A stretch of 63,841 bases of DNA, the filler included, from Dugesia japonica (Eukaryota): NCBI GenBank assembly GCA_001938525.1. It is 6 parts of 6 records of this genome, joined end to end, with 100 filler letters (N's around TTAATTAATTAA, not from the genome) between each part and the next. Parts side by side here need not be neighbours in the genome. Positions count along the whole stretch, not along the records: positions 23,562 to 32,006 come from MQRL01221255.1; 5 more parts are not named here. One strand, given 5' to 3'. Below, one piece after another: positions 7,575 to 55,241 of the stretch; position 1 is the first letter of the stretch, and every line of letters begins with the position of its first letter. A model generated the notes under the pieces. It had not been told where the DNA came from, made no database searches, and worked only from the letters and a program-made list of their open reading frames with translations. The translations under genes and the position numbers were made by a program.

Positions 7575-9592
7575 AGATAGATGTTTACTCTTCATACAAA
7601 TGTCTAGACATAACAACAAGCGATATCAAAATCATCAAAGGAGTCAAACAAAGAGGCCCTATGTCTTTGACGCCTTTTAGCCTGACTATTGATTTTATTA
7701 TTAGAGAAACCTCAATGGCATTTCCTCTAACTCTCAATGGTACAATGTTGCTATTTTAGCTTATGCAGATGATCTTGTACTTGTCTCCAACAATTACAAT
7801 CAGATGAATCATATGATAAACAAAATTATAAGCCTCACTGATATTAGCCATCTCAAGTTCAGACCAAGTAAATGTGGATTCTTCCAACTTAAAAAAAGCT
7901 CTAATGAAACTTGCAATATCAAAATTTACAATGAAGCAATTCCAAAAATTAATGAGGAAAACCTATGCAATTACTTGGAAGTACCATTTGGAGTAGCTAA
8001 GAAAAACAACCTTCAAGACATCATCAACAATACAAAAAAAACTTTAAAAAAAATCACAGAAAGCAATCTTCATCCATTACAAAAAATTCAAGCATACAAA
8101 ATGTTTATTCATTCAAGATTAATCTATGCTATGCGGTACAGAGACATTCTCTATATGACACTAAACAATCCTCATCACAAAGAAGTTGATGGCAGTACAG
8201 GCCAACCAGAATACGATCAAATTATCAAAAGATTAATTAAGAACATCATTCAAGCTTCAAATAGCAGTCACAATAATGCCTTCTCTACGTTCCATTTAAC
8301 CTCGGTGGATTAGGTTTACTGCCTTTAATCGATGAGTACTATATTCAAAGTATAGTAAATGCCTTCCGGATTCTCAATTATCGAAATAATTGTTTCAAAG
8401 GGTTTACAACAAGGGAACTTGAGAATACTGGGAAACACAGATTCAGAAACGATAGCACATGTTCGATTGAAAAAAGTCTATACTGGCTTAACAACACTAT
8501 TCTATCTCAAGATAAAGCGAATATTACTGCATCCTTGTGGACCAGAGTAAAGACGTCAATAAAAATACTGAAAGAAGATCAAAAACTAAAACTGCTCTTC
8601 TTTATTGAAGAAAATGAAATAACCCTGAAAATCACTAGACTGAATAATTACAATTACTCTTTCAATATACTGATCAATAACCGATCGAAGTCTAAGTTGT
8701 AGAATGTCCTTCATACTGAAATTGAAATGACAAATTTCAAAAATTGAAAAGCCTTTCCACACAAAGTTTTCTAGCAACCTGTCTAGCATCAGCAGACTAT
8801 GCTCAAAAATTTATGAAAAACATAAACCTTTCTGAAAGAAATTACCTCTTCATAGTCAGAGCAAGAAACAATCTTCTGAGAACTAACTACAATACATACA
8901 AACTGAAGAGCAACATGCCAATTCAATGCAGACAATGTAGTACTAAAGCTAAAATTTAAACACATATATCCATTCTACTGTAATCAATTTTTTTAATAAA
9001 AATTTCCAGTTTAATGAATTTTATTTTAAAAAATGTTCGACACTTATGAAATATAATATAAAAACCTAGTAAAATTATCATTTTATAATATTTAAATACT
9101 ACTATTACTTGTAATAATTAGCCATGATGAATCAAAAGTACAATAAACACAATCGTGTTATGGAAAAGATTACAGCTCAATTTAGAAAATGGAACTTTGA
9201 TGTAGAAATTGATTCATGTCCACAAGGTCTCGCAACGAAGCTTAGGTCTGATCTGATCATCAAAAGCCACAGGAATGCAAATATTCACATTCTTGACATC
9301 AAGGTTCCATATGATTCATTACAAGTTTAGAAGATAATAGGAAAAATATGAGAGCATCAGAGCCGAAATTAGCTCAAAGTTCCACAAAGAGGTTACACTT
9401 GATGCTATTGGCATTGGTACGTTAGACTCATAGGATTCCTTCAATCAAAAGAGTCTCAAACATATTGGTCTAACCTCAAATGAAATAAAGAAAATCTCGC
9501 AAATATCAATCGAAAGAGTAATCAAAGTGAGCCATCACATTTACTTAGATCATATGATCAATAAGGCTACATTTCCGTCAATTCAAAACTAA
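7575..9592 (+). mobile_element. Non-LTR retrotransposon, RLE-encoding R2 group (NeSL/R5/Utopia-like), decayed
   Basis: GVKQRGPMS, LAYADDLVL, FRPSKC, LHPLQKIQAYKMFIHSRL, YVPFNLGGLG, RARNNLL, CRQC, KHNRV, RSDLII...ILDIKVPYD: RT plus CCHC plus restriction-like endonuclease. Confidence 0.9.
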
Positions 9593-10124: not shown

Positions 10125-11789
10125 TATGACATTTATTGGATTAGTACAATTTTTCTTTAGTAATTTTAAATTAATTTGTTATTCATGAATGATTAAATTT
10201 GTTAAAAAGTAATATGCTGATCTGATAAATTAATTAATAAAATATTTTCAACAAAATTTCCATTAAAATTTATTAATCATAACAAATTTGCTACAAAAAT
10301 TATGCCTTCTTTTATCGTATTTTTGAAAAAGTATTCTTATAATATTTTAACTTTTTCAACCAATGTTAAATTAAAAATCATGATAATAAAGTAATTAAAA
10401 TTAAATTTAAAACAATTTCATTAAATTAATTTTAAAATTAAAATAAATATTAAAAATATTAAAAATAAAACCAAATAAACTTAAAGCTAATTATAAAATT
10501 TAAAACCCTTAAAAACATACTTTACCTGTTAATTTTTGAAATTCATTTTTAGACACTTGAATTTAATTCAGTAATTTTAATTTATAATCGATCTAGCTTT
10601 TATATTCAATAATAAAAGTGCAGTTTCGACACGTAAGTATGTAATTTTTCTCTATCTTCACAACATGTTCTTTTATTTTATTTTTTTATTGATTTAATTA
10701 ATTTGCGGCAAGATTATTTTTATTATTTACTTTTAATATAAATAAGACTGAATCACTTTGTGATTCAAACTTAAATTGTGTCTCAAACTCAAATTATCTC
10801 TCAGGCCACTTTAGATAAAATGCGAAAGTCAGCGGTCAACACCATTTCTGTAACTGACTGTAACACTTTTTGAATTTAGAACAATTATTGATCAATCCCA
10901 ATAAAATAAAATGAAATAATTTACATATAATATGTTAGATCATCAAAGTTTTAATAGTCAAAATGAGATAGGGATGTAATCATATAGTCATATCAAATAG
11001 TCAATTGATTTATTGAATCTGAGCTGATCTGGTTCTGGGAATATTACAGTCATTGATCTGAATCTGGAGAATCCAAGAATAATTGATACATGCGTATGTC
11101 TGCCTGTTGTATTTGTGCATGAAGGCATGTTTATATTTTAATTTTCGCGTTCTCCAACAACTAGTTAGTTTTTTACAATTCCAAAATTGATATGATCCAA
11201 TTGATTGTCTTTTAAAACTCTTGTAACTTTCATCCTTGTAAAGCTACCACCTTTTAACTAATATTTTCGATATTTATGTACTTTTTCTGATCATTAATTT
11301 TTTGTTCGCTATTTTTTCCGTGCTAAAAAGTCCTCTTTTCCTCCATATTTACTTTCTTAATGAATTTATATTTGTAGAATATTAAATCATTTAATTTTAA
11401 TGATTTTCTTCTCATAATAATAAATCATTTATTTTTTATTTTATTTTTTCTTAATTTATTAATTGGTTTAGTTCTTCTTTACATTTAAGCTAAAAATCGA
11501 TTTAATTTTAGCTTCCAAACTCCTGAATAATTTATTAAGTTTAATATTCAGCTTGTGAGGACATTTAATTAAAATTAAATGTTGCATAATTTAAATTTGA
11601 CTATGAGTTCAAATATTTTGTATGTTGTATAACAGGTCAATGTTTGTTTGCTGATTGAGGTATGTTGATTGTTCAAATGTTAATTACATAAATATTTATT
11701 CTTCCTTTTTAGATTGTCATTTAATAAATATTATAATAAAACAGACTTCTAACATAACGACAAGATATATGTTCAATTCGTTTGTTCCA

Positions 11790-13230
11790 ACTCCAAAACC
11801 TTCGATATTAAGACGACGTGGAAGATTTTTAATTGAGATAGCAAGATTTTATGAACTTACAATAACTCAAGGTTCTGTTCAAAGAACATTTATCAAAGCA
11901 TTTCTTTCCTCAGATGCTGTTAAAAGATATCAATCCTTGGATGATTCAATTGAAGATTATGCCCAACGATGCAGAAAAGCTTTTAAAAAACCAGCAAATA
12001 TCGGTAAATATTTATTATCTTCATTAAATTATCGAAACGGAAATGAATTCATAACTTTGTTTTTCAAAAAAATCGATGGTCTTGCAGAGAATATAATCAG
12101 ACATAACTTAACAAAGGAAAATCTCATCAATTTTCTTTTTGGCAAAATGCTGTTGAAGATATGGATGGTAAAAAAGAAATAAAAATAGTTGATCTATGAT
12201 AAATTTAAAAATAAATAATATTGTTACATCATGTTTACTTGATACTGAAGCTAAAATTAGTGTTATTAAATATGAATGATTAAAAAGAATAGGACATGTT
12301 TCAATAATTGATTCTGATATAAATGTCAAATGTGCGAATAATACTTGTTTATAAATTGTAGAAAAAGGATATTTAAATGTAAAGCTTAATGAAAAAATGG
12401 AGAATATTTGTTTTTATGTTGCTAAAGAAATCTCAATACCCGTTATTTGTAGAAAAAATCTATTGATTAAATTTAATATAAAACTCACCATTAATGAAGA
12501 ATCTGTTAATGTAATTAAATTTAAATCCAAAACACTAGAAATGGAAAATATTAAAGATAAAATGATATTGACNATTTTAGAAAAATATGAAAGCATTATA
12601 GTGAAACATAAATGGGATTTTGGAAAAACTAGTATTGTAAAACATGAAATAATAAACCAATTGCAATTAATTCTAGGCATCAACCTTATCATTTAATAGA
12701 TAAAATTGAGCAAAATATTAAAGAAATGGAAATAAATAGAATTATAAGTAAATGTGACTCCCCTTGAAATGCTCATTTGGTTTGCGTAAAAATACGAGAC
12801 AATAGATGAAGTTACAGAAAAACCACTTTTTTCTATTCCAAACACTGAGAAAATGATGAATATTTTATATGGAGCCAAATATTTTACTAGTATAGATTTG
12901 GGTAATGCTTATTATCAAGTAGAATCAACAGATGACTCAAAATGTAAAACTGCTTTTTCGACAAGGGGTGCACAATATCATTTTAATAGAATGCCCTTTG
13001 GAATCGCAGCTGCTCATTGCTACTTTTCAGAAATTGATGAATAAGGTTTTAGTTCCGTTAAATTGGAAAGAATTAGTAGTTTACTTAGACGATATATTAA
13101 TTTTCTGAAACTATTAAAGAACACTATAAGAGAATTGAAAATGTTTTGAAACGTATAAAAGAAGCCGGTTTAAAAATAAGTCCATCTAAATGTCATTTCA
13201 TGAAAAACGAAATAAAATTTCTGGTTCATA
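11790..13230 (+). mobile_element. Ty3/gypsy remnant (gag-PR-RT fragments)
   Basis: Gag-like FIKAFL...FKKP, protease CLLDTEAKISVI, RT FTSIDLGNAYYQV, TAFST, RMPFG, VYLDDILIF. It stops abruptly at 13230. Confidence 0.85.
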
Positions 13231-13811: not shown

Positions 13812-13911
13812 NNNNNNNNNNNNNNNNNNNNNNNNNNNNNNNNNNNNNNNNNNNNTTAATTAATTAANNNNNNNNNNNNNNNNNNNNNNNNNNNNNNNNN
13901 NNNNNNNNNNN
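13812..13911. other. Artificial contig-joining spacer N44-TTAATTAATTAA-N44
   Basis: Identical 100-nt structure occurs five times. The 12-mer puts stops in all six frames. Confidence 0.95.
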
Positions 13912-13984: not shown

Positions 13985-15630
13985 TCCCTAAGTATACTGT
14001 TCAGATAACAAAAACAGTTGAAGTAGAAGTGACTTTTGAAGAAACGAGAGAATATAGAAGAAATTAAAGAAACAATGACGTTGGTAGATAGTGTAGAGAA
14101 AAACAGAAATCAAGTTGATGCAGTTAGAAGTTATTCGAGAGTTACAAGTCAAAATTATCAGAAACCTGTAGATCATACCGTGAATAGACATACCGTGAAT
14201 AGACATGTGGATCAAACAAAAGAAAAACAAAATATTGAATGTTGGTTATGTCATAAGATCAATCATACTAAAGCAAATTGTCTGACGAAAAAAGTGGCAG
14301 AGTGTTAGACTTGTCAGAAAACAGGACACAGAAATCGAGATTGTCCAAATAAAAAACCAAGAAATTGTTTTGGCTGTGGAAAAGCTGGCCATATTAGAAG
14401 GTTATGTCAAGAAATTAGGTGTAAACGATGTGGTAATGGTGGACATAGGGCAGAAGAGTGCTACACAAATTTAAAAATGAAAAGAAGAATTGAGAAATCT
14501 ATGACTGCAAAAAGATCAAGAAACCGATATAATCAAGTGCATGCAATTGAAGATGAAGATGTCAATACAAACGATGGATACAAAAAAGTGTATGAAAGTG
14601 ATGCTGAAAGTTAGTATTCAAAAGACAGGGCTCCACTAGTAGAGAAGTTGGTTTGAGCCATCCATTGTAAATAAAGTGATTGATTATTCTCAAGAGGTCG
14701 AAAAATGGGATGATATCGGAAAGGTTACAGAAAAAGTATATAGGTTCTTAGAGAGTGAAATTTTGCGGATGATAGAAAATTAGATTGGGCTGAAACAATT
14801 GAAGCAGAACAGAAAACAAATATTCCGTATCATAAATTGCAAGGCAGACCAAGTGTTACGGTATCAATTCAAGGAAATAAAGTTGAATGTCTATTAGATN
14901 NNNNNNNNNNNNNNNNNNNNNNNNNNNNNNNNNNNNNNNNNNNNNNNNNATTTAAAAATGAGTGATGAAGATTGCGTTGTGCAAATAATAGTACACTTGA
15001 AATTGTTGGGAAAGTTAGAATAGAAGTCATAATTGATGAAGTTTGCAAAGAGATTACTTTCTTAGTTGCTGGAAGAGTTACACCAGATCTGATAGGAGGA
15101 ATAGATATGCAGAAGACTTTTAGATATGAGCTTATGCGAAAGGCCGAATCAATGGAGCCATGGTTTATCTTGATGGCATTCTGATATTTATGAAGAATAA
15201 ATATCAACACTATGAAGTAATTGAAAGAGTATTGACGAAAATAATGAAAGCTGGTTTAAGAATCAATCCAGAAAAATGTCAGTTACTTCAAAGCGAAATC
15301 AAATTTCTTAGACACATAATTAACAATAATAGTTTCAGAACTGATCCTACTAAAATAGAAGCAATAAGAACGAGTCATGAAAAAAGATACTGCATTACAC
15401 GAAAGGAATTATTGGCTGTGTATTATTTCTGCATGCATTTCAAACATTACTTTTACTCTTAAAACAGATCATAAAGCTCTAACTTTCATGATGAGGACGA
15501 AGAAACCAATTACGTCACAATTTTAGACATTGATTATTTATCTGAGTAGTCTAGACATGGCTTTGGAATATAGAAAAGGAATTCAACATGGTAATGCAGT
15601 TATGTTATCTAGACCAATATATGAAGTATC
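13985..15630 (+). mobile_element. Ty3/gypsy remnant (gag with CCHC knuckles, PR, pieces of RT and RNase H), internally deleted
   Basis: CWLCHKINHTKANC, CFGCGKAGHIRRLC, MVYLDGILIF, YCITRKELLAVYYF. Closely similar to the minus-strand copy at 32130-35812. Confidence 0.9.
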
Positions 15631-15639
15631 TGTACTATT

Positions 15640-16372
15640 AGTTAAATTCAAAGTCTCACAAGTATCCATAAATTGTTTATTGATTATTACAAGTCATTTC
15701 CGAGTTATTTTTTGGCCTCTTGAATTTTGTTTTGATAACTAAACTGCCTGTTCATATTTGTGTAACAGTCCTTTGCGTGAATTCTCGTCTTTTGTTGTTT
15801 CTGTTCTGTTGCATTCCTTCATTACGATTCGTGTTGAAATTTCTTTTTTCTGGGCTTCTGCGAACGGCATCTCTCTAGTTACGAACTACATTTATTTCTT
15901 CAATTTTTACTTCATCTTGAATGACTTCTCATTCTTTTATTGCTTTAAATACATCATTTACTTTATCTATTTTTCCTGATTTGATTTTATGTTTAATCTT
16001 TCTGTCGTTGTAACTATTCATTATTAGCCCTTTTGTTAAGTCCTCTTTGTTCCATTTATGAGCCATTAACTTTTCTACCAATCCTTCAATCTTCTTCTTA
16101 TAGATATTTATATGCTCTCCATTCCTTCNATAATTTAGAGCTTCCTCCATGTCTTTAATCATTGTTGATGGTCTAAAGAAAGCCTTTCTGAATCTTTCTT
16201 CAAATCCCAATGATTCGTCTTAATTTTCATAGATTTCGCGCAATTCTTTATCTATGAAAGCAACTACAAACAAACTCTTTTGACCTTTCTTTGTTCCGGT
16301 TATATCAAAATATTTCGTTGTCTTCAAAATAAATTTTTCGACATCATCGCCCGATTTGAAAATTCCAGGGTT
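15640..16372 (-). pseudogene. Ty3/gypsy gag fragment (second family)
   Basis: NPGIFKSGDDVEKFI...FIDKELREIYEN...GFEERFRKAF. Homologous to the gag at ~36390-36900. Confidence 0.7.
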
Positions 16373-16804
16373 NNNNNNNNNNNNNNNNNNNNNNNNNNNN
16401 NNNNNNNNNNNNNNNNNNNNNNNNNNNNNNNNNNNNNNNNNNNNNNNNNNNNNNNNNNNNNNNNNNNNNNNNNNNNNNNNNNNNNNNNNNNNAAATGATA
16501 AAGCACAATTCACAATATTCAAACAAATAATCTGAGAAATCTTAATAAATATTTTTCAAAAATATTCATTTGTTAAATTTCAAAATACTTTTATTTTACC
16601 TGTATCTTTAATTATTTTTAAACCTAATTTTACAAAATAATTTTTAAAGTTTTATAATTCAACATAATATAATATATAGAATTTATTCAATTAATTGGTA
16701 TTTTAAAAAACTTGTTTTATATTTTAAAAGTTTCAAAAAACCAATTTTAATATTATAAATCAAAATTAAAAAACTCAGATATTTGAAATCCATGAATCGA
16801 TACT

Positions 16805-17790
16805 TACATGTACAATGTCAAATGTCACATGAAGATGCCAAGAAAGGAAAGATTAAAACGAGAATACTGAACATAATTGAAAAGGAAAAAGAAGAACACT
16901 TAAACATGTCTGAAGAGACAGATTTAATCAAAAAAATAAAACTTTATGATGACAAAATACATTAGACAATAGAAGAAATACATAAATTATTATGTCATGG
17001 AAGAGTTGAGAAGGTGAACGAATACATGAGAAACAAATATATTGCCAAGAATTAGTGGAGACAAATACAGAAAATAAGTCGTAGTTGTGAAATTTGTCAG
17101 AAGATCAAAGTAGTGACGACAGCAACTAAAGAGAAGACAAGAGATTAGAAGCTAAAAATTTGTTTGAAGTCATATTCACAGATATATGTGGGCCAATGCG
17201 GGAAACAAGTGGACGAAAAAATACATTCTTGGAATAATCGACCAGTACAGTAAATATCTGGTTCTTATACCATTGCCTAGACAAGACGAAGAAACAAAAC
17301 GAAAAGCTATTTTAATTATGAGAAAGTTTGCACAGAAGCTAGATATTAAACTTTGCTTTTCCATATCACCATAATGCTAATGGACAAATTGAAAGGCAGT
17401 TCAGGAAAATTCGAGATTTAATTAATGCAACACTTCAGGAAAGAAAGACAACAGATTNGGCAGTTCTTGTACCGGGAATAGAATTTACAATGAACGCAAC
17501 AAAGCAGAAGACGACCGGAAAGAGCCCGGCTGATATCGTATTTGGGAAGAAGATTGCAGAGAAAGATGGTATTAGTCAGACCTTTCCGGTAAAACTAAAG
17601 AAAACACTTCATATGAAAATACGAATAGAGAATTCAAAGTGGGCGATTTTGTACTCAATTAGATAGAAACAAGAAATAAAAGTCAAGACAGATTTGAAGG
17701 ACCTTATCGAATAATTGAGAGAATTCATGAAAGACGCTATGCGGTATGGACAGCGATTAGAAAGAAATGTGGAAAAACTTAGAAGGAAAT
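16805..17790 (+). mobile_element. Ty3/gypsy integrase region remnant
   Basis: HKLLCH...CEICQ zinc-binding motif, DICGP, IIDQYSKY, HNANGQIERQF, FEGPYRI. Same family as 32130-33200. Confidence 0.85.
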
Positions 17791-19139: not shown

Positions 19140-20035
19140 TTTGGGGGGAGCTCAGAATGTGCATAAATTATAGACAATTGAACAAGAGAACAAAAAAGTA
19201 TCTTTTCCAATGCCAGACATTTTATTATTGTTGGATTGCTTATCTGGTGCCAAAATATTCTCATTTATTGATTTGGGACAAGCATATTACCAGGTGGATT
19301 CAGCGGATACATTAAAAGATTCCACTGTATTTAGTACAGAAGAAGGTCAGTTCAAGTTCAAAACGATGCCGTTTGGATTAGCTACATCGTTGGTTACATT
19401 CCAGAAATTCATACCCTTTATACAAAGCAATTTCAGGATGCAACAAAGCTTTGATTTAGACAGAAGCGTGTCAGAGCAGTTTTCATAATTTAAAAAACAA
19501 ACTATACTGCCCATCAGTGCTAGAGTATCCAAGGGAAGATCGGGTGTTCATCTTGGATACAAATGCCAGTATCGGAGCTATCTGTGCAGTTCTTAGTCAA
19601 AGGTCAGAGAAAGGTATAGTAGTGATAGCTTATAGTTTTAGACACCTAACGGCTCTCAAACAAGAATTTTGTGTTACGAGAAAGTAATTACTGGCAATAC
19701 ATGAGTATGTGCAACATTTCAAACAATGCAAAAGGCAAAAATTAAGACTGAAATATATCAATGAAATTCAGCAAGAAACAAATATCATAGCAAAAATTCA
19801 ACAGGTTTAAAACATAGATTCCTTTATTCAAAGAAGATTTACAGCGTTGCCAAGGAAAGGGAAAGAAACAGAAAGACCCGATCAAGGAAATTATTTAGAC
19901 AAAAAGAAAAACGATTTGAAAATAGTCGATAATTTACTAGTGTTGGAAAATGGAAACAAAAATCTGATGGCGGTTCCGTCAAACATAATTGAGGAAGTGA
20001 TAAAAAAAGATTTATTATTATTTAATAAAATTTAG
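19140..20035 (+). mobile_element. Ty3/gypsy RT/RNase H remnant
   Basis: LRMCINYRQLN, FSFIDLGQAYYQV, FKTMPFGL, FILDTNAS...AVLSQ. Confidence 0.8.
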
Positions 20036-23461: not shown

Positions 23462-23561
23462 NNNNNNNNNNNNNNNNNNNNNNNNNNNNNNNNNNNNNNN
23501 NNNNNTTAATTAATTAANNNNNNNNNNNNNNNNNNNNNNNNNNNNNNNNNNNNNNNNNNNN
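23462..23561. other. Artificial contig-joining spacer
   Basis: N44-TTAATTAATTAA-N44. Confidence 0.95.
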
Positions 23562-25560
23562 TCGCAAAATTAGATGTTAATGGGAATAATTCGACTTTTG
23601 TTATTAATGATCCACCCAGGAGAGCAAATCTTGGGAAGGAAAAACTGGTGGTTGCCGGAGAGGTGATCAGGCCAGAAAATACCGTGGAAAAACAGGATAA
23701 TGAAAACAGCCAAGGATCAGATATTCTTGAAAGTTGTAAAAATATAATTGAATCCAGAACGGATTGTCAGGATAAATTAAGTGTTCAGTTAAGAAATTAA
23801 ACTAGCAATGAACTAGCTGGAGAAAAAATAGATGACATAGTATAAATGTTGTTTACAATCAGGCAAGAGAAAGCCTTTTTCAAACCAATTGCTGAAATAA
23901 GCAGAAAAATTGGTGGGAAAATGTATGATTGGGATCTAAAAGATGCTCAATCGGAAATACAACTGCCAAAAGGAAACAGTGTTACCTTTGAATTAAATTT
24001 TAAGGAACCAGTCGCCAAAATAATAGCACAATTGAAAAAGGTTAAACGCAGGAAATTTGATCTATATTTATACGACGAAAAATTAGAAGAAGGTAATCTT
24101 CTATTGCTAAGCAAAATTTTACCAGTAGTAAAAACCGATTTAAAGGCTAAAGAGAAAGTAGTGGAAGTAGCTACTATCAGCCCAGATAGCACATTCGCTA
24201 AAGAATATATGGAATTGGAGCAGTGACAAGACGCTCAATCTATTATACAAAAATTAGGAAACGAGTTATTTTCAGTTCCAAGAGAGGATGAAAACATTAA
24301 AAGTAAATTAAGTTGGATGTTGACAATACATATCACAACTGAAGTTCTAAAAGAGGTAATTTATTGATATTACCATTGATTGATAAACCAAGCAGTTATC
24401 AAAATGAAATTAGAATGTTAATTTAAAAAATGGGGAAGCCATAAGACATGATCCTGCCAGACAGACCCATCGTTGTTGATATAAGAGTACCCTGTGAAGT
24501 GGTACCACAAATAAAGATATATTTATGTTTCAAAAAGGTGTTAAAACTGAAAGCGGATATCGGAATAACGTACCCACAAACGTGCTTAGTAGTAATTTGG
24601 GGTAATCAAGTTGATGACGACGAATACTTAGTCGATGTTGGATGTTTACCAACTAAAACTACACTAGTCAATGTNNNNNNNNNNNNNNNNNNNNNNNNNN
24701 ATTGGACTATGTTGCGATTGCCAGAAGTATCCGAGTTTGTACAGAATCAAGAAGTACCAATAGGGCATGAGGAGGAAACGAATATTCCTCGACAAAATCA
24801 AGAAATACTTGTGGATTTGGATGATCCAGAACCGTTCAAGTTGCCAAATATACCACAAAAATATTCTCTGAGAAAGCAAGTAATATCAGAAATGTACAAG
24901 GTAACAATCTGGGAGCATCAACCTCCAGAGAACCAGCAGAGGGAAGACAACCAAGAGTTGAAAGGAGAGGTAGACCAAAATGAATACTACTATCGAGCCA
25001 GTGGACAAAACAGTTGCCAGAGAAATCCCAGCCAGGGCATTAGAAGCCATAATTGATGAAACTGATCAAGGAGATGTATGAAATGAACCAGCAATGTCAG
25101 ATACATGCTGTAAAATTCTGCAATTAATGAGAGTATTTAAACCTGAGTTAAAAATTGAACAAATTGGACGATGGGATCCAAGCAAATTAGCCTTGTCACT
25201 AAAGACCATCATTAAAAAGTTATCAAGGAAATTGCCTAATAAAATTACCAGGAATACAATTCAAACGTTAGCTGCTCAAGTTATCACAAATGGGCGAGCT
25301 TTGACAGCATTAGCAATGATTATTCGGAATTCATTACTAAGCGCAAATAACAATATTAGAAAATTGAAACAGAAAGTTGCAAAGCTATCAACAATATTTG
25401 ATAATGTATTTGAACAGTGGACAGTTAATTTCAACGAATAGAATGAACAGATTTATCAAAATAATGAAGCACCAATATATGAAATTAATATGGAAAATAA
25501 CGAAATGTCTGTCTTTGAATCAAGTACCACCTACTACAAGGAGAGGATTAGAGAATCCTA
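23562..25560 (+). pseudogene. Decayed coding region of unknown family upstream of the glycoprotein (probable N-terminal part of the same polyprotein)
   Basis: Continuous purine-rich, same-strand ORF fragments (23846, 24448, 25094) with few stops, running into the glycoprotein frame. Confidence 0.55.
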
Positions 25561-27549
25561 CTCAAATAATACTAATGATGTTGGGAATATTAATGCAAAC
25601 CAATGTGTTGATTGCTTACAATTGCCATAATCCGAGTCCAAGAGGAATTTATTCGCTAGTAGATGCAATGGGATGTAGAGAAGCGTATCCTACTAAATTG
25701 CAGGTTTTACAATCAGCTAGATATTATATTTATCATGAAATCGAGTATTATCGCACTAAAGTGAGAGAGTGTCGAGTACAGAAGGCAGTATTTGAATATT
25801 ATTGTGTAGTTCATAGTTGTACAACAGTGTTGTCAGCGAAACTCATACCAAGATCAGTCAATGTGCTACAAGAAGATTGTCAAGATGTTTTTAGAACGGG
25901 CAAGTTAAGAATAAATAATCAAGTTTCATTAAAAGCAAAAATCGGGAAAACACTGCCAGAAGCCATAACAATCGGTGGTCCTATTGACGCAGACAGAGAT
26001 TGTGTTGGACATACAAAAGTAAGACAGGGTACTACTGTTGATTGGGTAGTAGACATTGTAGACTACACTGTAGAATTTCTAGAATACGAGGGAGCATTCG
26101 ATGTCGAATCCGGTAGGATGGTGGGAAATCCCAATTGTAGTTCAAAATTCTCTAGTTGTACAACTGGATTTGCAACTCTTCTATATGTCAAACGGCGTGA
26201 TTTTTGTAAATTATCGTTACTAAAAGGCTTATCATTTACAAAAGTGAATGGAACTAGATTCAAAACTGAAGGGACAAGACCTAAATTGTTCAATAACCAC
26301 AAAGTAAAGACAATGACTAAACAACAAGTTCAAAACACTTTTAGACAAGTGGAAAAAGGTGAAATAGAGGAGGAAAATACTCCCGTGGTATTAGTATCTA
26401 TTGATCCTAACGATGCAATAAGGTTCGTTAGTAAGGAGCTGAAATTAAAGTGTGCTCACAGGGTATATGAAACTAACTATAAAGGGTTGTACTTAGCAAA
26501 AACTAGTGTTCCAACCGCAAAGCAGATAAATGCTCAAGATATAAAAACGACAAACTATGTAAATAATAAAGTCGATTATATATTTAACAATTTGCAATTA
26601 CTGATGAATGAGATGTACGAAGAAGTAATTACGAATAATTGCAAATTAAGCACAGAAATTATAAAAAATAGATTAGCAATTTCAGTAGTAAACCCTGATT
26701 TGGTTACTCAAATGTTGTTGGAAAAAGGAGTTTTTGGACGAATAATGAGCAAAGCCATTTATAGCTATCAATGTGCGCCTATAGAGGTGTCACTTGCCAA
26801 TTTTAATCAATGCACAGAGGAATCGCCGGTAATCTATGAGAATAAATTGAGATTCATGAGTCCGATAACTCATATGTTATTAAGCAAAAATGCGAAACCT
26901 CAGGAAGCTGTATGTAATCCGGCCATGTCACCATTATACATGGTGGATGACCATTGGATTTCATTACCTGATCGTAAACCGCCATCAAAACCAATACAAA
27001 CATTATATATTTCCAAATTGACTGATAATATGGAATTCAAACCTCTTAATGACTTCGCAAAAACGGGAATTTACACTTCTGAAGATATGGAACAATCAAG
27101 GAAAATGTTTTTCTACCCACATACAAAGAAACGAGGAATATCGGAAATAATTGGAATAGTATATCATCAAAATGATATACAACCAAATTATAACTTGTTA
27201 TTTAGGCCAGAACATAACAAGGAAGCTGCTAAAAATGTAGCACAAAATTTCTGGGGAAAATTTAGTGCATTTTGGAGTATTTCTCTCCGGATTAGCAGGA
27301 ATTTATGCTATTTGTGTAATTTTAAAAGTGGCGCTCACTCAATTGTTATCCATATATAGTATATTTAAAATAGGTGGATGTACTTGGACACTAATCATTC
27401 AGTTGTTTCTATTTTTTGCAAAATTCCTATTGTTTAAACATCCTCACAATCAAATTAAAATGTTAAAAATGAGACAAGGAAGCAATGATGATGACGATTT
27501 CGACGATGATACTGATATACCTACTAAACATGGTATAGATGAAGATTGA
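25560..27549 (+). pseudogene. Chuvirus-type (Jingchuvirales-like, class III/gB-like) fusion glycoprotein, env of a retroelement; one frameshift at ~27270
   Basis: Hydrophobic signal IILMMLGILMQTNV, then LIAYNC, YSL...C, QVLQ, CRV...YYCVVHS, CQDVFRTG, YVNNKVDY, QCAPIEV, CTEESPV.Y...FMSPITHML, GIYTSED, FWGKFSAF/GVFLSGLAG, then TM helices in the shifted frame. Confidence 0.85.
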
Positions 27550-28126
27550 TTTTCAAGAGCTTTGACTAAAGCTAAGAAAGTGAAAGTGGGAATTCTAATT
27601 AATAAACAGAGGAAACGAGATGTTATCCAGACCAACTGGGATGGAGAATTAAGATATACAGGTCGCGGACCGTATAACTCACCAATCAGTACTATATCCA
27701 ATCCACCATTGAAAGCAAGTGCTCCAACCGAAAATTCAATGTTACCACCACCAATGTACCCAACTTGGAAATGAGATGAACTAAGAGAGCACATAAATAA
27801 CTGGGATATGGAGAAAATCTTGGAATATGTGAACACTAAACCAGGATCACGAGGTTTAGTAAGCACTATATTTGAAAGACAAAGTGGTCAACAATTGCCT
27901 GGTGAACTATACTCAAGAAGATCTTGCAAAAGGATTTTGAAACTGGGAAAAAATGCAAACTAGATTAAGAAACTTATCAAATATGAACACAGAGAAAATT
28001 AGGCAAAACTCAATGAATCAAAACTATCAATTGCAGGAAAGAAGTGGCATGAATAATCAAACAGAACCAAATCTCGATACACAAAGAGAAAAAATGTTAG
28101 GAATTTCAACATTTATGTCAGATTAG

Positions 28127-28747
28127 GCTCACAAGCCAACGATTAAAATTATAATTAATAGACATGTGGTCTACGCTATGATAGATTCAGGATCAGATAG
28201 AACGATAGTAGAAGCCAATCTACTGAAAAAAACAGAAACGGAAAATGTGATTAAAGAACAATCAGACATTACTGCAGCAAACAGAGGAAAATTAAATATA
28301 ATAGTATATCTAGATTGTAATATAAAATTATGTGATCAAGACATAAAACATGAAATAAAAGTCATGAGGAGATGTCCAGTAGAATGCATACTAGATATGA
28401 ATGTATTAAAGAAGCTCAAAGTTGTGGTCTTTGATTGTGCTACGGGATAATTGGTAAAGCTAACTAGAAAGCGTAAAAAAGAATACAACGAACAATTAGC
28501 TTATATCAATAGACAGATCACAATACCTCCGATGGTAGAAACTGTATGTACTATCAATACTACACTCAAGCAGGAACGAGAAGTACTGTTTGAGTCAGAT
28601 GCTCTGTTAATGGAAAGATATTGTATACCGAGAACCTGTAACGTCAGCCAGGTTAGAGAGGGTAGATTTTCGATAAAATTGAGAAATTTAGACATCAGAC
28701 CTTGTTTCCAAATACAAATATTGGAGTTATATATATATACCAAATGA
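28127..28747 (+). pseudogene. Retroviral-type aspartic protease plus post-protease domain (start of pol)
   Basis: KPTIKIIIN...AMIDSGSDRTIV...ITAANRGKLNII...CILDMNVL, then ITIPPMVETVC...VLFE...IKLRN as follows the protease in many gypsy Pol proteins. Confidence 0.85.
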
Positions 28748-28876
28748 AGAGATAGTAGAGAAATCTTCAACATTATCTGTCATAGAACAACGAGATCCAA
28801 ATAAGGAATACTATGACGCACCATGTTGTGATAATAAAATCATAACTAGAAAAGAAATTATTCTCATGAATATGTT

Positions 28877-29380
28877 AGTAAGTATATACTGGCGCACTAA
28901 GCAACCCGACCACCGTCAAGGTCAAATTTGCCGGATATATTCTAATTTGATTGGTTAAAATTTTCTTTTCAAGGTCAAAGTGGCTCATTCTACTTAGTTT
29001 TGATTGGTTGAAATTATTTCAAGATCAAAGTTACTTCTTATAGTCGATTCTGATTGGCTGAACCATTTCAAGGTTGAGTTTTTAAGGTCAAAGGCGCTCA
29101 TTATACTCAATTCTGATTGGTTGAAATAATTCACGATCGAATTTTCAAGGTCAGATTGATTTAGTATACTCATTTCTGATGAGTAAAATATTTCAAGGTC
29201 AAATTAAAGTAGGTCAAGGTCATTTCCATAACAACTATTTATAGGTCAATGTCAAATATCATTCGGACAGGCTTAATAATTACTCTAACCTTTAATCATC
29301 GTGCAGACTTAACATTAATAATTCCCGTGCCGATTTAATATTAAAATTTCCTTGGCAGACTTAATATTATTAATCCCTGA
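28877..29380 (+). repeat. Polinton-type terminus with ~5 tandem 50-65-bp units (TCAAGGTCA + TGATTGG) and three 26-bp repeats
   Basis: agtaagtatatactggcgcac matches 13231 at 17/21. Repeated caaggtcaaa...tgattggttgaa units span 28916-29260. gcagacttaa.atta repeats span 29300-29378. Confidence 0.6.
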
Positions 29381-29473
29381 AAAAGTATTTAATACAGTAA
29401 TAAAGAAGAAATAAATTTAAATTTAAATGAACATTTATTTAATAATAAACTAAATTAAATAACATAAATTTAT

Positions 29474-30036
29474 TAACATTGTCTTTTATCAGACTCAGGA
29501 TAGATAGAATCGATAAATTTTTTCTTCAAATCTTTCTTCTTTCCAGAACAATATTCACAATTAATATCTTCTTTATGATATTCGTTGAATATATTCATAA
29601 CCTTTTTGATATCAACTCCGGTCAAATGTTTAATTTTAAACCATTACAATTCTGGTGCGCAGTATATTATTTCTTCGCTTAGTTTTGGATGATTAATTTC
29701 AAGTAATTCGATGAACAAATCTCAAACAAAATAATATAATTCAAATGAAATTAAATTAAACCTTTTTCGAATGTATTTGAAGATTTTTCTAAAAGCTCTA
29801 ATCCTTTTTTCAACTCTGCTTCCTCTACCATTTGTACATCAGATTCAATATTTTCTAAATATATTATTTTCTAAATAAATTATTATAAAATATCTTACCC
29901 GTAGCTTCAAAATATTTTCCTCTTCATCTGCTGTTGAAGGCTATTGTTTTTCACCATATTCTAAATTTGGCTGGACTTCTTCATTTTGATGATCGTCTTC
30001 AATATCTATTAATTTTCCAATAAATTCATATTACAT
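29474..30036 (-). pseudogene. Acidic, CxxC-containing ORF with two probable micro-introns, next to a Polinton terminus
   Basis: IDIEDDHQNEEVQPNLEYGE.../ENIESDVQMVEEAELKKG.../DLFIELLEINHPKL...YHKEDINCEYC. GT-AG segments at 29855-29898 and 29721-29761. Confidence 0.45.
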
Positions 30037-30213
30037 TTTGAAAATAAATGATTTAAAATTGTAATTCAAATATATAGGTTTTAACACCCAATCAAAATTA
30101 TTTCCATTTTTAACCAATCAAATTAAATTATTATTATTACATACATTCGTGAATATACACAGATATGTATATAAATTCATTATTTTCGAAAAATAATAAT
30201 TATTTTTAAAAAT

Positions 30214-30920
30214 ATGACTAAAATAAATACATTATCATTGAAACAAGAAGAAATGATTAAAAATATTAATATTTGTGTTCGTGATAATGAAGAGATTGAA
30301 GAAAAATACAAGAAAGAAATGGCTCTATCCCAAATTCCGAAAATTCTTTCATCATTAAATCCAAATACTGAGGATAAATACGTAAGATTGAATTTTATAG
30401 ATTTCTTATTCGATTGTAAAGCCAACAAATCAGAAAATTTAAAAAATGTTTACAATCTCTAAAAGTTCATGGACGCTTTTGAGGAGATTTTAAATAATGA
30501 GGTATTACTCAATCGACATAATTTTGAGAATAAACTAGAAGCTGGTTTACACGCCTTGATGGAAATTCAATTTTTGGATAGTTTGGTATTATTAAGAAAA
30601 GAAGAAAGCGTCAAAAACTAGATTTCAATATGGATTCATTAAAAAACATAAGTTTCCTAATGCATAATTTGGTAAAATTGTTTAATCTTGATCCACCAAC
30701 TGTAGCAAACCAACTTTATGAAGAAGATACAATAAAAGTATTAAATTGTTTAAATATTGACTTAGATTATAAAAGTCTTGAAGAAATAAACGAAATCAGG
30801 CTTGATATACCATTACAGACTCTATCCTTCACGTTAGGAAAACAATACAAATGTGACATTGAAAGAAAAACAAAAAGTGGTGGTAATACTTTTATTTTTA
30901 TTAATCAATATTTAATTTAA
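30214..30920 (+). pseudogene. Decayed ORF of unknown function (probable Polinton accessory gene)
   Basis: Consecutive ORF fragments 30214-30462 and 30630-30920. Preceded by two CCAATCA boxes and a TATA-like GTATATAAA. Confidence 0.35.
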
Positions 30921-32006
30921 ATATTAAGAAATAATTTGCCATACAAAATATTCCAAGAATCACAGAATATCGTATGACTAAAATGAAATTTGATCTTTAA
31001 ATGTTATTTAATAAATTTTGTTTAATAAATTTTGTTCTTATCATAGTTATTTTTATTTAACATTAATTATACAAATTTTAAAGTTGAGTAAATTTATATT
31101 TCAATAAAATACGAAATTAATTGACACTTGTAAAATAAAGGAATAATGATAATGATTTATGTCAAACTTGTGTAAATATGTATTAAAAATGAAATTACAA
31201 GTATGTGTATGCATGTGTATGTTTGAGTACTATCTGGAACGTTAAAATTGAGCAAATATAAATAAATAAAATATTAATTAATTAATTAAAATATTATATT
31301 ATTAATAAGCGGAAAGATAAACGAAAAAAGATTATAATAAAAAGAGAGATGGGGAGAAACATAAATTCAAGAGTTTAATTAGAAAAGGACAGCTGTAATT
31401 AGAACAAGATAAAAACGTGGGAGGTCAGAATAAACATAAGAATTATGTTACAGAAGAAGTAAAAAGGAGATAATTGAAAGTTGTCAAAAACTTGACAAGG
31501 AAAGCGAAATCAGAATCATGGCGCTAGAATCAAGCTATATAAGCAAACAAATGAAAGCCAAAATCAGAACTTAATAGGAAAGAACTTAAAAACTTTATTG
31601 AGCAAAAAAGAGGAACATAATAAAATTTAAGAGACTTTCAAGAACTATAAAAATTGTTTCAAGAGTGTTAAAAAGGGAAATCAAAGAGAAATTTAAGAAT
31701 CGGAAGTTTTCTTTGGAAATTAAAGAAGCGAAATAAAAAGGAAATTAAATCAATCAAGTTGGAATTGTTGAAATAGTAAAAGTTAGAGTTCTATTCAATC
31801 ATTACCTGTCAAATCAAGCACATTGGCTCAACTCAGACTAATCAAAACGTAACCGTCGTATTTGTGTATTATTTATCGTTGAAATTATTATTGAAAACCT
31901 ATGTTGTGATTTGTGATTATTTGAATTAACATTTATATATATATATATAAAATAAGAAAACGCAATTTCTTTAAAAAACATCTATTTTTAATACATGTTT
32001 CGGACA

Positions 32007-32106
32007 NNNNNNNNNNNNNNNNNNNNNNNNNNNNNNNNNNNNNNNNNNNNTTAATTAATTAANNNNNNNNNNNNNNNNNNNNNNNNNNNNNNNNNNNNNN
32101 NNNNNN
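32007..32106. other. Artificial contig-joining spacer
   Basis: N44-TTAATTAATTAA-N44. Confidence 0.95.
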
Positions 32107-32129: not shown

Positions 32130-35100
32130 TTCCTAATTAGTTCCTCTTCTTAAGAAACTTCTAAGTTTTTCCACATTTGTTTTTAATCGCTTTCCATTTT
32201 CTTCTTGTACCGCATACCACCTTTCTTGAATTCTCTCAATTATTCGATAAGGTCCTTCAAATCTGTCTTGACTTTTATTTCTTGTTTCTATCTTGAATTC
32301 TCTATTTCTATTTCAATCTAAAATGTTTTCCTTAGTTTTATCTGAAACTTCTGACTCATACAATTTTTCTCTGCTAATCTTCTTTGCAAATAAGATCTCA
32401 GCTGGGCTCTTTCCAGTCGTCTTCTGCTTTGTTGCGTTTTTTGTAAATTCTATTTTCGGTAAAAGATCAGCCCTATCTGTTTTCTTTCTTTCCTGAAGTT
32501 TTGCATTAATCAAATCTCGAATTGTCTTGAACTGTCTTTTAAAGTGTCCGTTTGCATTATGATGATAGCGACTCGAAAAGCAAAGTTTAATATCTAACTT
32601 CAGTGTAAATTCTCTTATAATCCTGGATTCAAAAGCTTTTCCACAATCGAGTCTTATTTCTCTTGGACATCCAATTCTCAATATCTACTTTTCAAAAATA
32701 GCTTTTCATATTGTTTCCTCGTCTTGTCTAGGCAATGGTATAAGAACCAGATATTTACTGTACTGGTCGGTTCCAAGAATGTATTTTTTCGTCCACTTGT
32801 TTCATGCATTGGCCCACATATATCTGTGAATATGACTTCAAACAAATTGGTTGCTTCTAATCTCTTTGTCTTCTCTTTAGTGGTGTCGTCACTACTTTGA
32901 TCCTCTGAAAAATTTCACAACTACGAACTATTTTCTGTATTTCGCTCCACAAATTTTTCGCAATGTATTTATTTCTCATATATTCGTACACCTTCTCATA
33001 TCCTGCATGACATAATAATTTATGTATTTCTTCTATTGTCTCATGTATTTTGTTATCGGAAATTTTAATTTTCTTGATTAAATCTGTTTCCTCAGAAATG
33101 TTTATTTGGTCTTCTTTTTTCTTTTCAATCATGTTCAGTATTCTCGTTTAAATATTTCCTTTCTTGGCATCTTCATGTGACATTTGACATTGTACAAATA
33201 CCTCGCATCTTGCTCTAGATAACATATCTGCATTACCATGTTGAATTCCTTTTCTATATTTCAAAACCATGTCTAGACTACTCAAATGATTAATACATGT
33301 CTGGAATTGTGACGTAATTGTTTTCTTCGTCGTCATATGAAAGATAGAGCTTTATGATCTGTTCTAAGAGTAAATTTTCTACAGTACAAGTAATGTTTGA
33401 AATGCATACAGAAATAATAAACAGCCAATAACTCCTTTCGTGTAATGCAATATCCCTTTTCATGACTTNNNATTGAGTGTGATCCATAAGCAACAACTCT
33501 TTCTCTTCCTGCTTTATCTCTCTGTGACAAGTCTGCTCAAATTGTATCAAAACTGGCATCTGTATCTAATATAAATTCTCTGTTTATGTCTGGAAAAAAC
33601 AATATTGGTGCAGTCATTAGAGATTTCTTTAAGCCTTCAAAAGTATCGTTTATTTAATCTGTCCATTCTAATTTCTTGTTGCTTGGTCAACTACACAACT
33701 GTTCTAAGATTCTTGATTTCCTTGCATAGTTTTCTAAAGAATTTTCTGTAATAATTACAAATTCCTAAAAAACTTTGCAGCTTCTTCACACAGTTAGGTT
33801 TGCCAAATGTGTTCATTGCTTCTATTTTAGACAGGTCAGTTCTAACACCATCTCTGCTGATTATGTGTACAAGAAATTTGATTTTGTTTTGTAGAAACTG
33901 ACACTTTTCTGGATTAATTCTTAAACCAGCCTTCATTATTTCCATCAATACTCTTTCAATTACTTCATAGTGCTGATCTTTATTGTTCGTAAATACCAGG
34001 ATGTCATCAAGATAAACCATGGCTCAATTGATTCTGCCTACCACTTTTGTCATCATCTCTTGAAATGTCCCTGGTGCCGCTGCGATGCCAAATGGCATTC
34101 TACTAAAACAATATTGTCCATGCTTCGTTGAAAATGCCGTTTTTTCTTGAGATTTTTCTTCGAGCTATACTTGATAGTACGCATTTCCCAAGTCTATTGA
34201 ACTGAAATATTTAGCTCCATCTAACTTGTCCTGAATTTCATCGACATAAGGCATATGAAGGGCTTGTCTTTTCGTTACTGCATTCAATTGTCTAAACTCC
34301 AAGCATATTCTTATGTCCGTCTTTTCCTTTTTCCAAACACGAATAAGTTGGGTATTCCAAGGAGAGTTGCATTTCCGGATAATATTATTCTTGAAATTCA
34401 ATTTAAGAATCTAAGTTTATTGGTTGCCTGTACTGTTTTACATTGATTGGTTCAACACCTGTGATTATTTTGTGACTTTTCAGATGAGTGCGTCCTACAT
34501 CTCATTTATCTGCCATAAAAGCATCTTCTTTACTTCCAATTATTTTCAATAATCGCTGATCCTCTTTAACCTTAAAAATATTTAAGGCTCTTGTCAATAG
34601 CTCTCCTTTTTTAATTTGTCTTCCGAATTTTGCTTCAATATTGCAAATGTAATTTTCGACTTTTTCATCCAAAAATCTTCTGCATATCTATTCCTCCTAT
34701 CAGATCTTATGTTACTCTTTCAGCCACTAAGAAAGTAATCTCTTTGCAAACTTCATAAATTATAACTCCAGTTCTAACTTTTCCAACAATTTCAAGTGTA
34801 CTATCATTTGCACAACGCAATCTTTCATCACTCATTTCTAAATGAACGTTTCGTAATTTATTGAAACAACTCAAACTCGTCACGTTAATTCGAGCCCCTG
34901 TATCTAATAGACATTCAAATTTATTTCTTTGAATTGATACCGTAAAACTTGGTCTGCCTTGCAATTTATGGTACAAAATATTTGTTTTCTGTTTTGCTTC
35001 AACTGTTCCAGCCCATTCTACTTTTCTTTCATNNNCAAAATTTTCCCTCTTTAAGAACCTGTATACTTTTTCTGTAACTTTTCCTATATCATCCCATTTT

Positions 35101-35812
35101 TCGACCCCTTGGGGATAATTACTAACTTCATTTAACAATGGATGGCTCCAGCCAACTCCTCCACTGGTAGAGCCATGCCTATTGGGTACTGTCTTTCGGA
35201 ATAACTTTCATATACTTCCTTATATTCATCGTTTGTACTGATATCTTCATCTTCAATCGCATGTACTCGATTATATCGGTTTTTTGATCTTTTTCCAATC
35301 ATAAATTTCTCACTTGTTCTTTGCATTTTTAAATTTGTGTACCACTTTTCTGCCCTATGTTCACCATTAACACATCGTTTACACTCCAATTCTTGACATA
35401 ACCTCCTAATATAGCCAACCTTTCCACAACCAAAACATTTTGTTGGTTTTTTGTTTGGACAGTCTCGACTTATATGTCCTGTTTTATGACAAGTCCAACA
35501 TTCTACCACTTTTCTTGTCGGACAATTTGCTTTAGTATGACCGATCTTATAACATAACCAACATTCGATATTTTGTTTTTCCTTTCTTTGACCCACATGT
35601 CTACTCACTGTATGATTTACAGGTTTCTGATAATTTCGATTTGTAACTCTCGCGTAACTTCTAATTGCATTAACTCGATCTCTGTTTTTCTCTACTCGAT
35701 CGACTAACGTCATTGTTTCTTCAATTTCTTCTATATTCTCTCGTTTTCCCAAAGTCACTTCTTTTTCAACTTTTTTGTTATCTGAACAATATACTAACAT
35801 CTTTGCTACCAT
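32130..35812 (-). mobile_element. Ty3/gypsy LTR retrotransposon internal region, near complete but decayed (gag-PR-RT-RH-IN)
   Basis: Three CCHC knuckles, LLDTGA, SIDLGNAYYQV, VYLDDIL, LDTDAS, RKELLAV, RTDHKAL, HKLLCH, RLDCGKAF, in gypsy domain order. Confidence 0.95.
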
Positions 35813-36389: not shown

Positions 36390-38710
36390 TTTTCTAGATA
36401 AAGAACTACGAGGAATTTATGAAAATGAAAAGGAACCAATTTGAATTCGAAGAAAAATTATAAAGATATTGAAGAAGCTTTAAATTATTGAGGGAATAGA
36501 TAGTATGTGAGTATCTATAGGAAGCATATATAATGGTAGAAAAGTTATTCGCTTACAAATAGAACAAAGAAGATTTAACAAAGGAACTAATAATGAATAG
36601 TTGCAATGACAGAAAGATAAAACATAAGATCAAATCTAGAAAAATAGAAAAGTAGATGAACTCAAAATAATGAAAGAGTAGGACGCTGAAATATTTAAAA
36701 AATTAATGCAGTTTGTAACTACAAAGATGCAGTTTGGAAAAGTCCAGAACAAGGAAGTTTCAACAAAAGTCGTAATGAAGAGATACAGAAAGACAAAAAC
36801 AATGGACGATGATAAATCACGTGTTGAACCTGTAAAAAAATAGGTTGGTTATGCAGAGATTGTCAAGAAAGAAACATAAGTGTTATGCTTGTGGGTCTGA
36901 AAAACACTTAACAAGAGACTATACAAAGTTAGTTGCCCAAGATGCAACGAAAATGAACATAAATATGAACTGGCCGTTTAATTATCAGAATAGGAATGAA
37001 TATGTCAGAAAATAATTCGGATATTGCAAACAAAGATATTATCCAAACAAAACGAATAACAATACAAAAAGATATAGAGATTATGTTTAAATAATTGAAG
37101 AAAATGAAAGAGATTGTACAAGTAGAGAATATAAAGCATGTCGTTATAAGAAAGGAATGAATATGGATCAGATGAAATATCTGAATGGTTAAGCTCCAAT
37201 TGAAGTCGAGATTGTTGGAACGTTGAATTAAGTATCACCAAAAATTGCAATATCGTTAATTATAGTAAAAAATAGTGTATATAATAATAGAAATGAAGGA
37301 AAGGAAGATAAAAGAGTAGATGAGTTCAAGCATGAAGAAGAAAATGTTTACAAGTTTAATAAAAAAGAATTGTTGGAAGCAAATCAGAGATAATAAATGA
37401 TATAATCATATATGATAAAGATGGTAATAAAATTATTACTATAGAAGAAATGAAGTAGCAAGGTATAAACTATAACAAGATGCAACGTAAACCACGTGCA
37501 TAGAACGAGATTCAAAGAACAACAATTGACTGTTTGCTAGACATTGAGTCAAGAGTTAATATAAATAATTTAAAACTTTTGAAAGACTAAATGACGTCAA
37601 TATATTAAAAAGTGAAGATAATTTAAGATGTACCAATACATTGTAAGCCCTATAAAAATAGAAGTGGAATTCTAGAATCAATGCAAAACAGTTAAATTTA
37701 TTGCGGTAAAACAGGTTTAACCTAATCTAATAAGAAGAATAAAAAATAACAGAAATAGTTTAGGTTCCGACAATTGAAAACAATAAAAAATGAAGACAAC
37801 AATGTGTATCTGTGTAATATAGATGTGAGATATAGACGAAATACATAGGATGCAGAAAGAAAGCAGAGCATCAACAAAATAAATGAGAATTTGAGAACAT
37901 TATAATGATGCATAAAGGAATATTTTTTGGCAGAAAACTGCGATGGCAGAAATACGATGTTAGAACATCAAATAATAACAAATGGAAAACCAATAAATAA
38001 TAAAACCATGGAGACAACTAATGTATCTAGAGGATAAGATAAATGACGCTATCAAAAACCTGTTTGACAATGGCATTGATTTAAAGTATAATTCATAATG
38101 GAACATCATGCTAATGTGAGTATGGAAGAAAGATAATAGAGACGTTAAATAATGCCTAGATTTTTAGAAAGCGAATGCAATCACAGAAAGACAGACATTT
38201 CCGATAACTAATATAGACGAAATACTCGAAAATTTTAAAGGTCTAAGATATCTTAGTACGATTGATCTTGATAATGCATAATATCAAGTTTCTTTACGTA
38301 AAGATCAGCAAGAGAAAAAATCATTTTCCGCAAAGAATGACCAGAAGTGTCTTTCGATATAGCTGCAGCACCAGAAATGTTTCACGAATTAATGACAAAG
38401 ATTTTAGGAAAATTGAGAGGAACGATGGTTTATATGGATGATATACTGATATTTTCAGAAAAATTAGAGCAGCACTATAGAATATTGGATGAAGTGTTTA
38501 AGAGAATTCAAAAATCAAGGTTAAGAATTAATCTGGAAAATGAATTTATTACGAGCAGATATCAAATTTTTAGGAAATGTCATAAACAATAATAGAGTTA
38601 CAATTAGTCCGACAAAAATAAAAGTAATAAAAAAAATTTGAAAGACCTAAATGTGTAAAGAACTTGGGAAACATTTTAGGAATATGCCATTACTCCAGAT
38701 GGTTTATCAA
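36390..38710 (+). mobile_element. Ty3/gypsy remnant (gag-PR-RT), heavily decayed
   Basis: FLDKELRGIYEN, CYACGSEKH, CLLDIESRVN, STIDLDNAY, VYMDDILIFS, FLGICHY. Confidence 0.8.
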
Positions 38711-46399: not shown

Positions 46400-46499
46400 N
46401 NNNNNNNNNNNNNNNNNNNNNNNNNNNNNNNNNNNNNNNNNNNTTAATTAATTAANNNNNNNNNNNNNNNNNNNNNNNNNNNNNNNNNNNNNNNNNNNN
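46400..46499. other. Artificial contig-joining spacer
   Basis: N44-TTAATTAATTAA-N44. Confidence 0.95.
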
Positions 46500-55141: not shown

Positions 55142-55241
55142 NNNNNNNNNNNNNNNNNNNNNNNNNNNNNNNNNNNNNNNNNNNNTTAATTAATTAANNN
55201 NNNNNNNNNNNNNNNNNNNNNNNNNNNNNNNNNNNNNNNNN
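55142..55241. other. Artificial contig-joining spacer
   Basis: N44-TTAATTAATTAA-N44. Confidence 0.95.

Follow-up and report, generated by a model that had tools for sequence, protein, structure and literature searches.

Positions 23562-28876 of the window (the whole 63,841-nt stretch of Dugesia japonica DNA analysed here, assembly GCA_001938525.1) most probably hold a decayed and truncated copy of a multi-copy retroelement family in which a class III fusogen is encoded upstream of the protease, likely a Burro-type Ty3/gypsy family whose working members would encode everything in one polyprotein (probability about 0.88). The copy lies on record MQRL01221255.1, whose part of the window extends from 23562 to 32006 between two assembly spacers. 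All five spacers in the window (13812-13911, 23462-23561, 32007-32106, 46400-46499 and 55142-55241) are identical 100-nt blocks (44 N, 12 letters, 44 N), and because they join separate contigs, the order of features across them is no evidence of linkage.

The preliminary description of this DNA had named a chain of chuvirus-type glycoprotein motifs within an open ectodomain of ~560 residues. The motifs do occur in a single frame (AYNC at 25614, YYCVVHS at 25797, YVNNKVDY at 26556, CAPIEV at 26772 and GIYT at 27066), and this open frame matches PF24664 (Monjiviricetes_fusion) with an expectation value (E) of 3.2e-54 and 184.5 bits, against a cut-off of 27. The frame 27241-27549 continues the same family at profile positions 544-620 (E 3.3e-6). 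Fourteen cysteine columns are conserved in at least 94% of the aligned rows, and all 14 are kept in the Dugesia glycoprotein. The proposed class III fold was borne out by structure prediction: the ectodomain model, made with an alignment of 103 rows, reached a predicted local distance difference test (pLDDT) value of 88.5 and a predicted template modelling (TM) score of 0.71, with a long helix at 315-362. Among viral models, the top Foldseek matches were chuvirus and chu-like glycoproteins (E 1e-36, TM up to 0.70), and herpesvirus gB filled each row shown from the PDB (best E 2e-14, TM ~0.4). A profile of the 103-row alignment also retrieved gB from the PDB, weakly (best E 0.013), in 33 of the 34 rows at E up to 1, while the ectodomain as a single sequence gave no match in the PDB and an unusable model (pLDDT 32). 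We therefore assign 25605-27270, on its predicted structure, to the class III fusogens of the chuvirus/gB type, with membrane fusion as its predicted activity. The signal-like and transmembrane segments expected on either side were recovered as hydropathic stretches at 25560-25622 and 27259-27435, the latter made up of two runs (27259-27372 and 27361-27435), and the tblastn match of the relatives runs on through the anchor region.

An aspartic protease had been read behind the glycoprotein, and Pfam indeed places a retropepsin at 28127-28450 (PF09668, E 1.8e-8; RVP, E 1.9e-6), with the IDSGS motif beginning at 28181 and its Asp at 28184; its best relatives are P0006 and P0012 (E ~1e-11). The anchor and the protease are 251 residues apart in the Dugesia copy, as compared with 98-344 in ten relatives. 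As previously stated, no CCHC knuckle, LTR (long terminal repeat) or AT-rich spacer separates env from the protease, and the interval holds neither a long repeat pair nor an AT-rich gap. The stretch that follows, 28451-28876, occupies the place of the dUTPase-like domain of Burro.

From 23563 to ~28870, one plus-strand frame is poor in stops in almost all 300-nt bins, the A-over-T skew is steady, and the G + C content is 29-42%, as against ~20-30% across much of the window. The longest stop-free run, 25368-27359, comprises 663 codons, whereas no run in 200 shuffles of 24701-28876 exceeded 180 codons. The four stops (27547, 27772, 27938 and 28124) and two frameshifts (near 27270 and 27870-27940) reported between glycoprotein and protease are present, together with two further stops (25439 and 28448) and one further frame change (near 25520-25570). 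The start of the copy is lost at the spacer 23462-23561, a gap of 26 N lies within it at 24675-24700, and its coding run terminates at 28876. Because of the stops, the frame changes and the other element that cuts it at 28877, the copy is a dead, truncated fragment of ~5.3 kb, unable to produce a polyprotein.

As retroelement fragments abound in the window, and as fossils of chuvirus glycoproteins are common among LTR fragments without having been captured (PMC10084718; for this and the other papers cited, our statements refer to the portions consulted), an endogenous chuvirus glycoprotein gene might by chance have come to lie next to a protease that belongs to an unrelated retrotransposon. 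We examined the copy against contigs of four runs, three with one species label and one with another, in which contig depth is no measure of copy number. All 30 bins of 24701-28900 were covered by contigs in all four runs, and a contig joint from 27398, within the anchor, to 28082, immediately 5' of the protease, was found in three of the four (depth 171-340, shorter side 32 letters). In the relatives P0006 and P0012, matches to the env, anchor, protease and spacer of the window follow one another in that order, and the steady strand skew and stop-poor frame run throughout. Such chance nesting is accordingly very improbable, and the earlier claim that env and protease belong to one element is upheld by the even cover, the joint and the shared order. 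Each run contained between 73 and 1,184 matching records, most of them less than 95% alike, and thus the stretch belongs to one diverged multi-copy family.

Related proteins were sought by HMMER over 1.84 billion proteins, which yielded 849 matches; 12 of the best 19 have at least 1,000 amino acids. We scanned the domains of 16 relatives, namely all 13 of at least 1,000 amino acids among the best 150 matches listed and three shorter top matches. The protease lies behind env in the same chain in 11 of the 16 (two of these below the Pfam cut-off), followed by reverse transcriptase (RT) and RNase H in five and also by integrase in four. A CCHC or Retrotrans_gag match precedes env in four of the 16, and RT or integrase precedes it in none. 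The other five comprise three chains that extend no further than the anchor, a chimera, and one protein whose env is N-terminal and followed by no named domain. Two cluster members, P0151 (4,844 amino acids) and P0154 (3,003 amino acids), show the order env, protease, RT, RNase H, integrase. Of 12 polyprotein relatives, 8 have a signal-like run at the corresponding position and 10 have just one hydrophobic run following the ectodomain. When the ectodomain was used in word-based protein searches, no relatives appeared at 321-1,022 or 1,023-2,920 amino acids, a blank that reflects a limit of sensitivity, since HMMER recovered relatives; a scan of IMG/VR gave none.

The single chain in 11 of 16 relatives supports the proposal that the env-before-protease order is a trait of the lineage, and it also argues against a reading in which env and protease form separate or recoded frames in working copies, with a true stop or a programmed frameshift in the linker and Pol not fused to Env. 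In the Dugesia copy itself, env, linker and protease do occupy three frames with four stops between them, and the consulted portion of PMC13524379 allows as much as 2,000 nt between ENV and POL and is silent on in-frame fusion. However, the breaks are distributed evenly over the copy, domain interiors included, several of them coincide with sites at which the contigs of other copies differ from the Dugesia copy, and env is in frame in Burro (PMC6431247). Separate frames are thus unlikely.

The phylogeny of env points in the same direction as the domain order. The tree comprised 61 rows (the span was sufficient in 100 of 151 proteins, of which the first 60 by identifier were taken, with the chimera P0013 excluded), and the window fell within a set of 17 that holds all 11 env-before-protease rows (Shimodaira-Hasegawa-like approximate likelihood ratio test, 99), with the stand-alone glycoproteins of 650 amino acids outside this set. 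The gypsy-like affinity previously suggested is supported by the pol domains of the relatives, which are of the Ty3/gypsy type (gag-asp_proteas, RT_RNaseH and Integrase_H2C2). An Anakin-type BEL/Pao element with a captured chuvirus glycoprotein would share this glycoprotein family, which occurs in Pao elements of mosquitoes (PMC7642597). Nevertheless, no Pao-specific Pfam family was present in the 16 relatives scanned or in P0151 and P0154, the protease of the window matches retropepsin families and gypsy-type relatives, and the flatworm elements are classed as Ty3/gypsy (PMC13524379), so that a BEL/Pao origin is scarcely credible.

Two features of the relatives deserve mention in their own right. 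Several chains contain more than one retropepsin domain, each with the D-T-G motif (seven in P0151, four in P0001 and three each in P0002 and P0003), some of the extra domains being located behind the integrase, and a thin search of the literature found no report of duplicated protease domains. In addition, P0006 (HBK71150.1) is labelled as a protein of a Flavobacteriaceae metagenome-assembled genome, yet it is a gypsy polyprotein with the order env, protease, RT, RNase H, integrase; it likely stems from eukaryotic contamination of the bin.

Upstream of the glycoprotein, ~2 kb had been described as unknown coding sequence. That it is coding was corroborated, but it is not wholly unknown, as it likely includes a Bcl-2-like domain, a trait of Burro. 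Four relatives have a helical domain before env, and their joint profile matches Bcl-xL structures (best E 0.0086). The profile of these four, from which the window was excluded, has its best match over the whole window in six frames at 25220-25420 (E 9e-4; next 0.04), and with P0013 added the same segment was found at E 6.7e-5. Pfam Bcl-2 is matched by the relative P0004 at E 1e-3, below the cut-off. Thus, 25082-25441 likely encodes a Bcl-2-like domain, judging from these sequence profiles; the assignment is likely and not firm because direct searches were blank and the hhalign comparison was weak. Further upstream, 24373-24672 matches P0001 at 455-546 (phmmer, E 7.5e-7), and jackhmmer adds P0011 at 1003-1096, with no Pfam or PHROG family found for the segment; the idea that it is a second copy of the protease-to-RT spacer was rejected. 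For 23562-24370, there was no fitting match in Pfam, PHROG or the PDB and none among the relatives compared.

Several observations weigh against reading the copy as a member of a Burro-like family with a single polyprotein. No single contig spans the whole stretch. On 23562-32006, whose 5' side is cut at 23562, there was neither a gag match nor a CCHC knuckle in six frames, and no RT, RNase H, integrase or LTRs of the copy are visible in the window, where its coding run stops at 28876. The Bcl-2-like segment had no direct match in Pfam, the PDB or Atlas and an hhalign probability of 3%, the candidate ubiquitin-like segment at 23846-24226 found no match in Pfam, PHROG, the PDB or the profiles of the relatives, and no dUTPase match was obtained for 28451-28876. 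Env is only 24-35% identical between the window and the relatives, and the tree comes from a quick search in which the window has a long branch (1.16) and its placement within the set is not fixed. Finally, in animals with de-repressed BURRO1, expression was reported and no infectious property was found (data not shown in PMC8532177).

The unusual layout raises the question, already posed in print, of how a gB-type fusogen is processed between Gag and Pol, and of whether elements of this kind spread from cell to cell. Targeting to the endoplasmic reticulum (ER) by a signal, cleavage by signal peptidase and return of the chain at an anchor are general membrane-protein biology. We infer for the family a gag, an RT and LTRs, and on this basis a working member would encode, in a single polyprotein, Gag, accessory domains, a Bcl-2-like domain, Env, protease, RT, RNase H and integrase. 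Translocation of the ectodomain into the ER lumen would be directed by the internal signal segment, with signal peptidase cleaving ahead of the AYxC start, and at the anchor the chain would re-enter the cytosol. Both flanks, Gag on one side and Pol on the other, would then face the cytosol while remaining tied to the membrane until the retropepsin releases them. Gag, Env and Pol would be made in equimolar amounts, and the outcome may be enveloped particles that can fuse with other cells and are in that sense infectious.

A bolder and rather doubtful extension is that these elements are enveloped viruses of flatworms, in which a giant polyprotein is threaded through the ER as in flaviviruses, gB alone serves for entry and the Bcl-2-like domain keeps the producing cell alive. 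It would also hold that the family, found across two species labels, lies outside the six elements catalogued in Schmidtea mediterranea, and that relatives with up to seven intact-motif retropepsins are unreported.

The copy ends where another element begins. The matching of the contigs of other copies ends at 28876 in X1, X7 and X8, and since short tandem repeats and small open reading frames (ORFs) begin there, another element cuts the copy at this point. This inserted element starts with AG and has about seven TCAAGGTCAAA-type cores spaced 50-60 nt apart; its small ORFs lie on both strands and match no family, and its second end was not found in the window. Its start presumably resembles a Polinton/Maverick end, which makes this group a candidate only. 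Neither at the DNA nor at the protein level does the env element match any other part of the window, and two possible continuations were discarded: the RT fragments at 12.2-13.2 kb and 37.5-38.6 kb are accompanied by a degenerate protease of their own (by eye), and the pair found at 14-17.7 kb and 32-35.8 kb represents a compact gypsy element with gag and pol instead. The features of the copy are listed in Table 1.

Table 1. Features along the env-bearing retroelement copy and the element inserted behind it
Feature	Positions	Strand	Remarks
Decayed coding sequence	23562-24370	+	Stop-poor frame; start cut by spacer
Ubiquitin/SUMO-like domain, candidate	23846-24226	+	Resemblance by eye only
Domain without a name, ~95 residues	24373-24672	+	Recurs upstream of env in polyprotein relatives P0001 and P0011
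Linker, polar, low-complexity	24701-25056	+	Frame 24445-25056 open; no credible family
Likely Bcl-2-like domain (BH1-BH2 region)	25082-25441	+	Profile of relatives; stop at 25439 breaks the domain
Internal signal-like hydrophobic segment	25560-25622	+	Kyte-Doolittle 1.72; directly 5' of the AYNC ectodomain start
Predicted class III (chuvirus/gB-type) fusogen ectodomain	25605-27270	+	PF24664, model, Foldseek; single open frame
Fusogen membrane anchor region	27241-27435	+	Next frame; PF24664 positions 544-620; hydrophobic runs
Tail/linker, ~230 codons	27436-28126	+	Four stops, one frame change
Retropepsin	28127-28450	+	PF09668, RVP; DSG at 28184
Protease-to-RT spacer	28451-28876	+	Homologous stretch in P0012, P0006, P0002 and P0151
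Unrelated inserted element	28877-30920	.	~55-nt short repeats, then small ORFs without family

Elsewhere in the window, two copies of a compact gypsy element with gag (CCHC), protease, RT and integrase and without env lie at 14035-17746 (plus strand) and 32208-35753 (minus strand) and are 84-95% alike, and decayed fragments with RT, which are not related to the env element, occur at 7705-8702, 11655-13230, 19145-19726 and 36800-38700.

Compared with known systems, the element recalls the giant gypsy-like LTR retrotransposons Burro/GYPSM1 of planarians, in which env occupies an in-frame position after a BCL2-like domain, with gag upstream and the protease downstream (PMC6431247). Burro has a polyprotein of ~5,000 amino acids in an element of more than 25 kb, with a dUTPase-like domain between protease and RT and a Ubi2/SUMO-like domain before BCL2 (PMC6431247). 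The Dugesia copy shares with Burro/GYPSM1 the placement of env after a BCL2-like domain and before the protease (the former domain traced weakly, through the profiles of relatives), a protease-to-RT spacer, an AT-rich genome and many copies, and it differs in that gag, MATH, BIR, ankyrin, RT, integrase, LTRs and full size are not visible in a dead 5.3-kb fragment. In addition, Burro env was likened to mononegavirus-type fusion proteins and also to gypsy/F-type proteins (PMC6431247), whereas a class III fold was found for the Dugesia env. Troyka, which is without env, was rejected as a match. Anakin resembles the Dugesia element in having this glycoprotein family inside an LTR element, and differs in being a BEL/Pao element of mosquitoes and not Ty3/gypsy; known BEL/Pao env genes are placed downstream of pol (PMC7642597). 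The glycoproteins of Jingchuvirales and herpesvirus gB share the class III fold and PF24664 at a sequence identity of 10-19%, but these free viruses use a gene of its own with an N-terminal signal.

A reading of the layout and its lineage as undescribed is not supported, in view of the in-frame env of Burro (PMC6431247) and of the GAG-ENV-POL Ty3/gypsy elements that Nematoda, Bryozoa and Platyhelminthes carry, with a chuvirus-like env of the gB type (PMC13524379). In Schmidtea mediterranea, six such elements are catalogued, and the genome holds 253 env matches in ENV-POL order (PMC13524379). Like the Platyhelminthes C1a group with Smed_errantivirus_1-6, the Dugesia element has env before pol, a gB-type fold and the cysteine pattern of domains I-II (by eye); the listed elements are intact, whereas the Dugesia copy is broken. 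The nearest of the six listed env sequences is that of Smed_errantivirus_4, with 121 of 225 residues shared (~54%; by hand count, in two gap-free blocks of 93/185 and 28/40), as compared with 31-38% in 11 of 12 published env pairs (PMC13524379), a closeness that points to a planarian as the likely host. Because the Dugesia env is identical to none of the six listed, the element likely represents another family or comes from another species. Thus, the layout is already published, with intact families in print, and the Dugesia fragment contributes to this known system one more family of the same kind, together with a class III model of its env.

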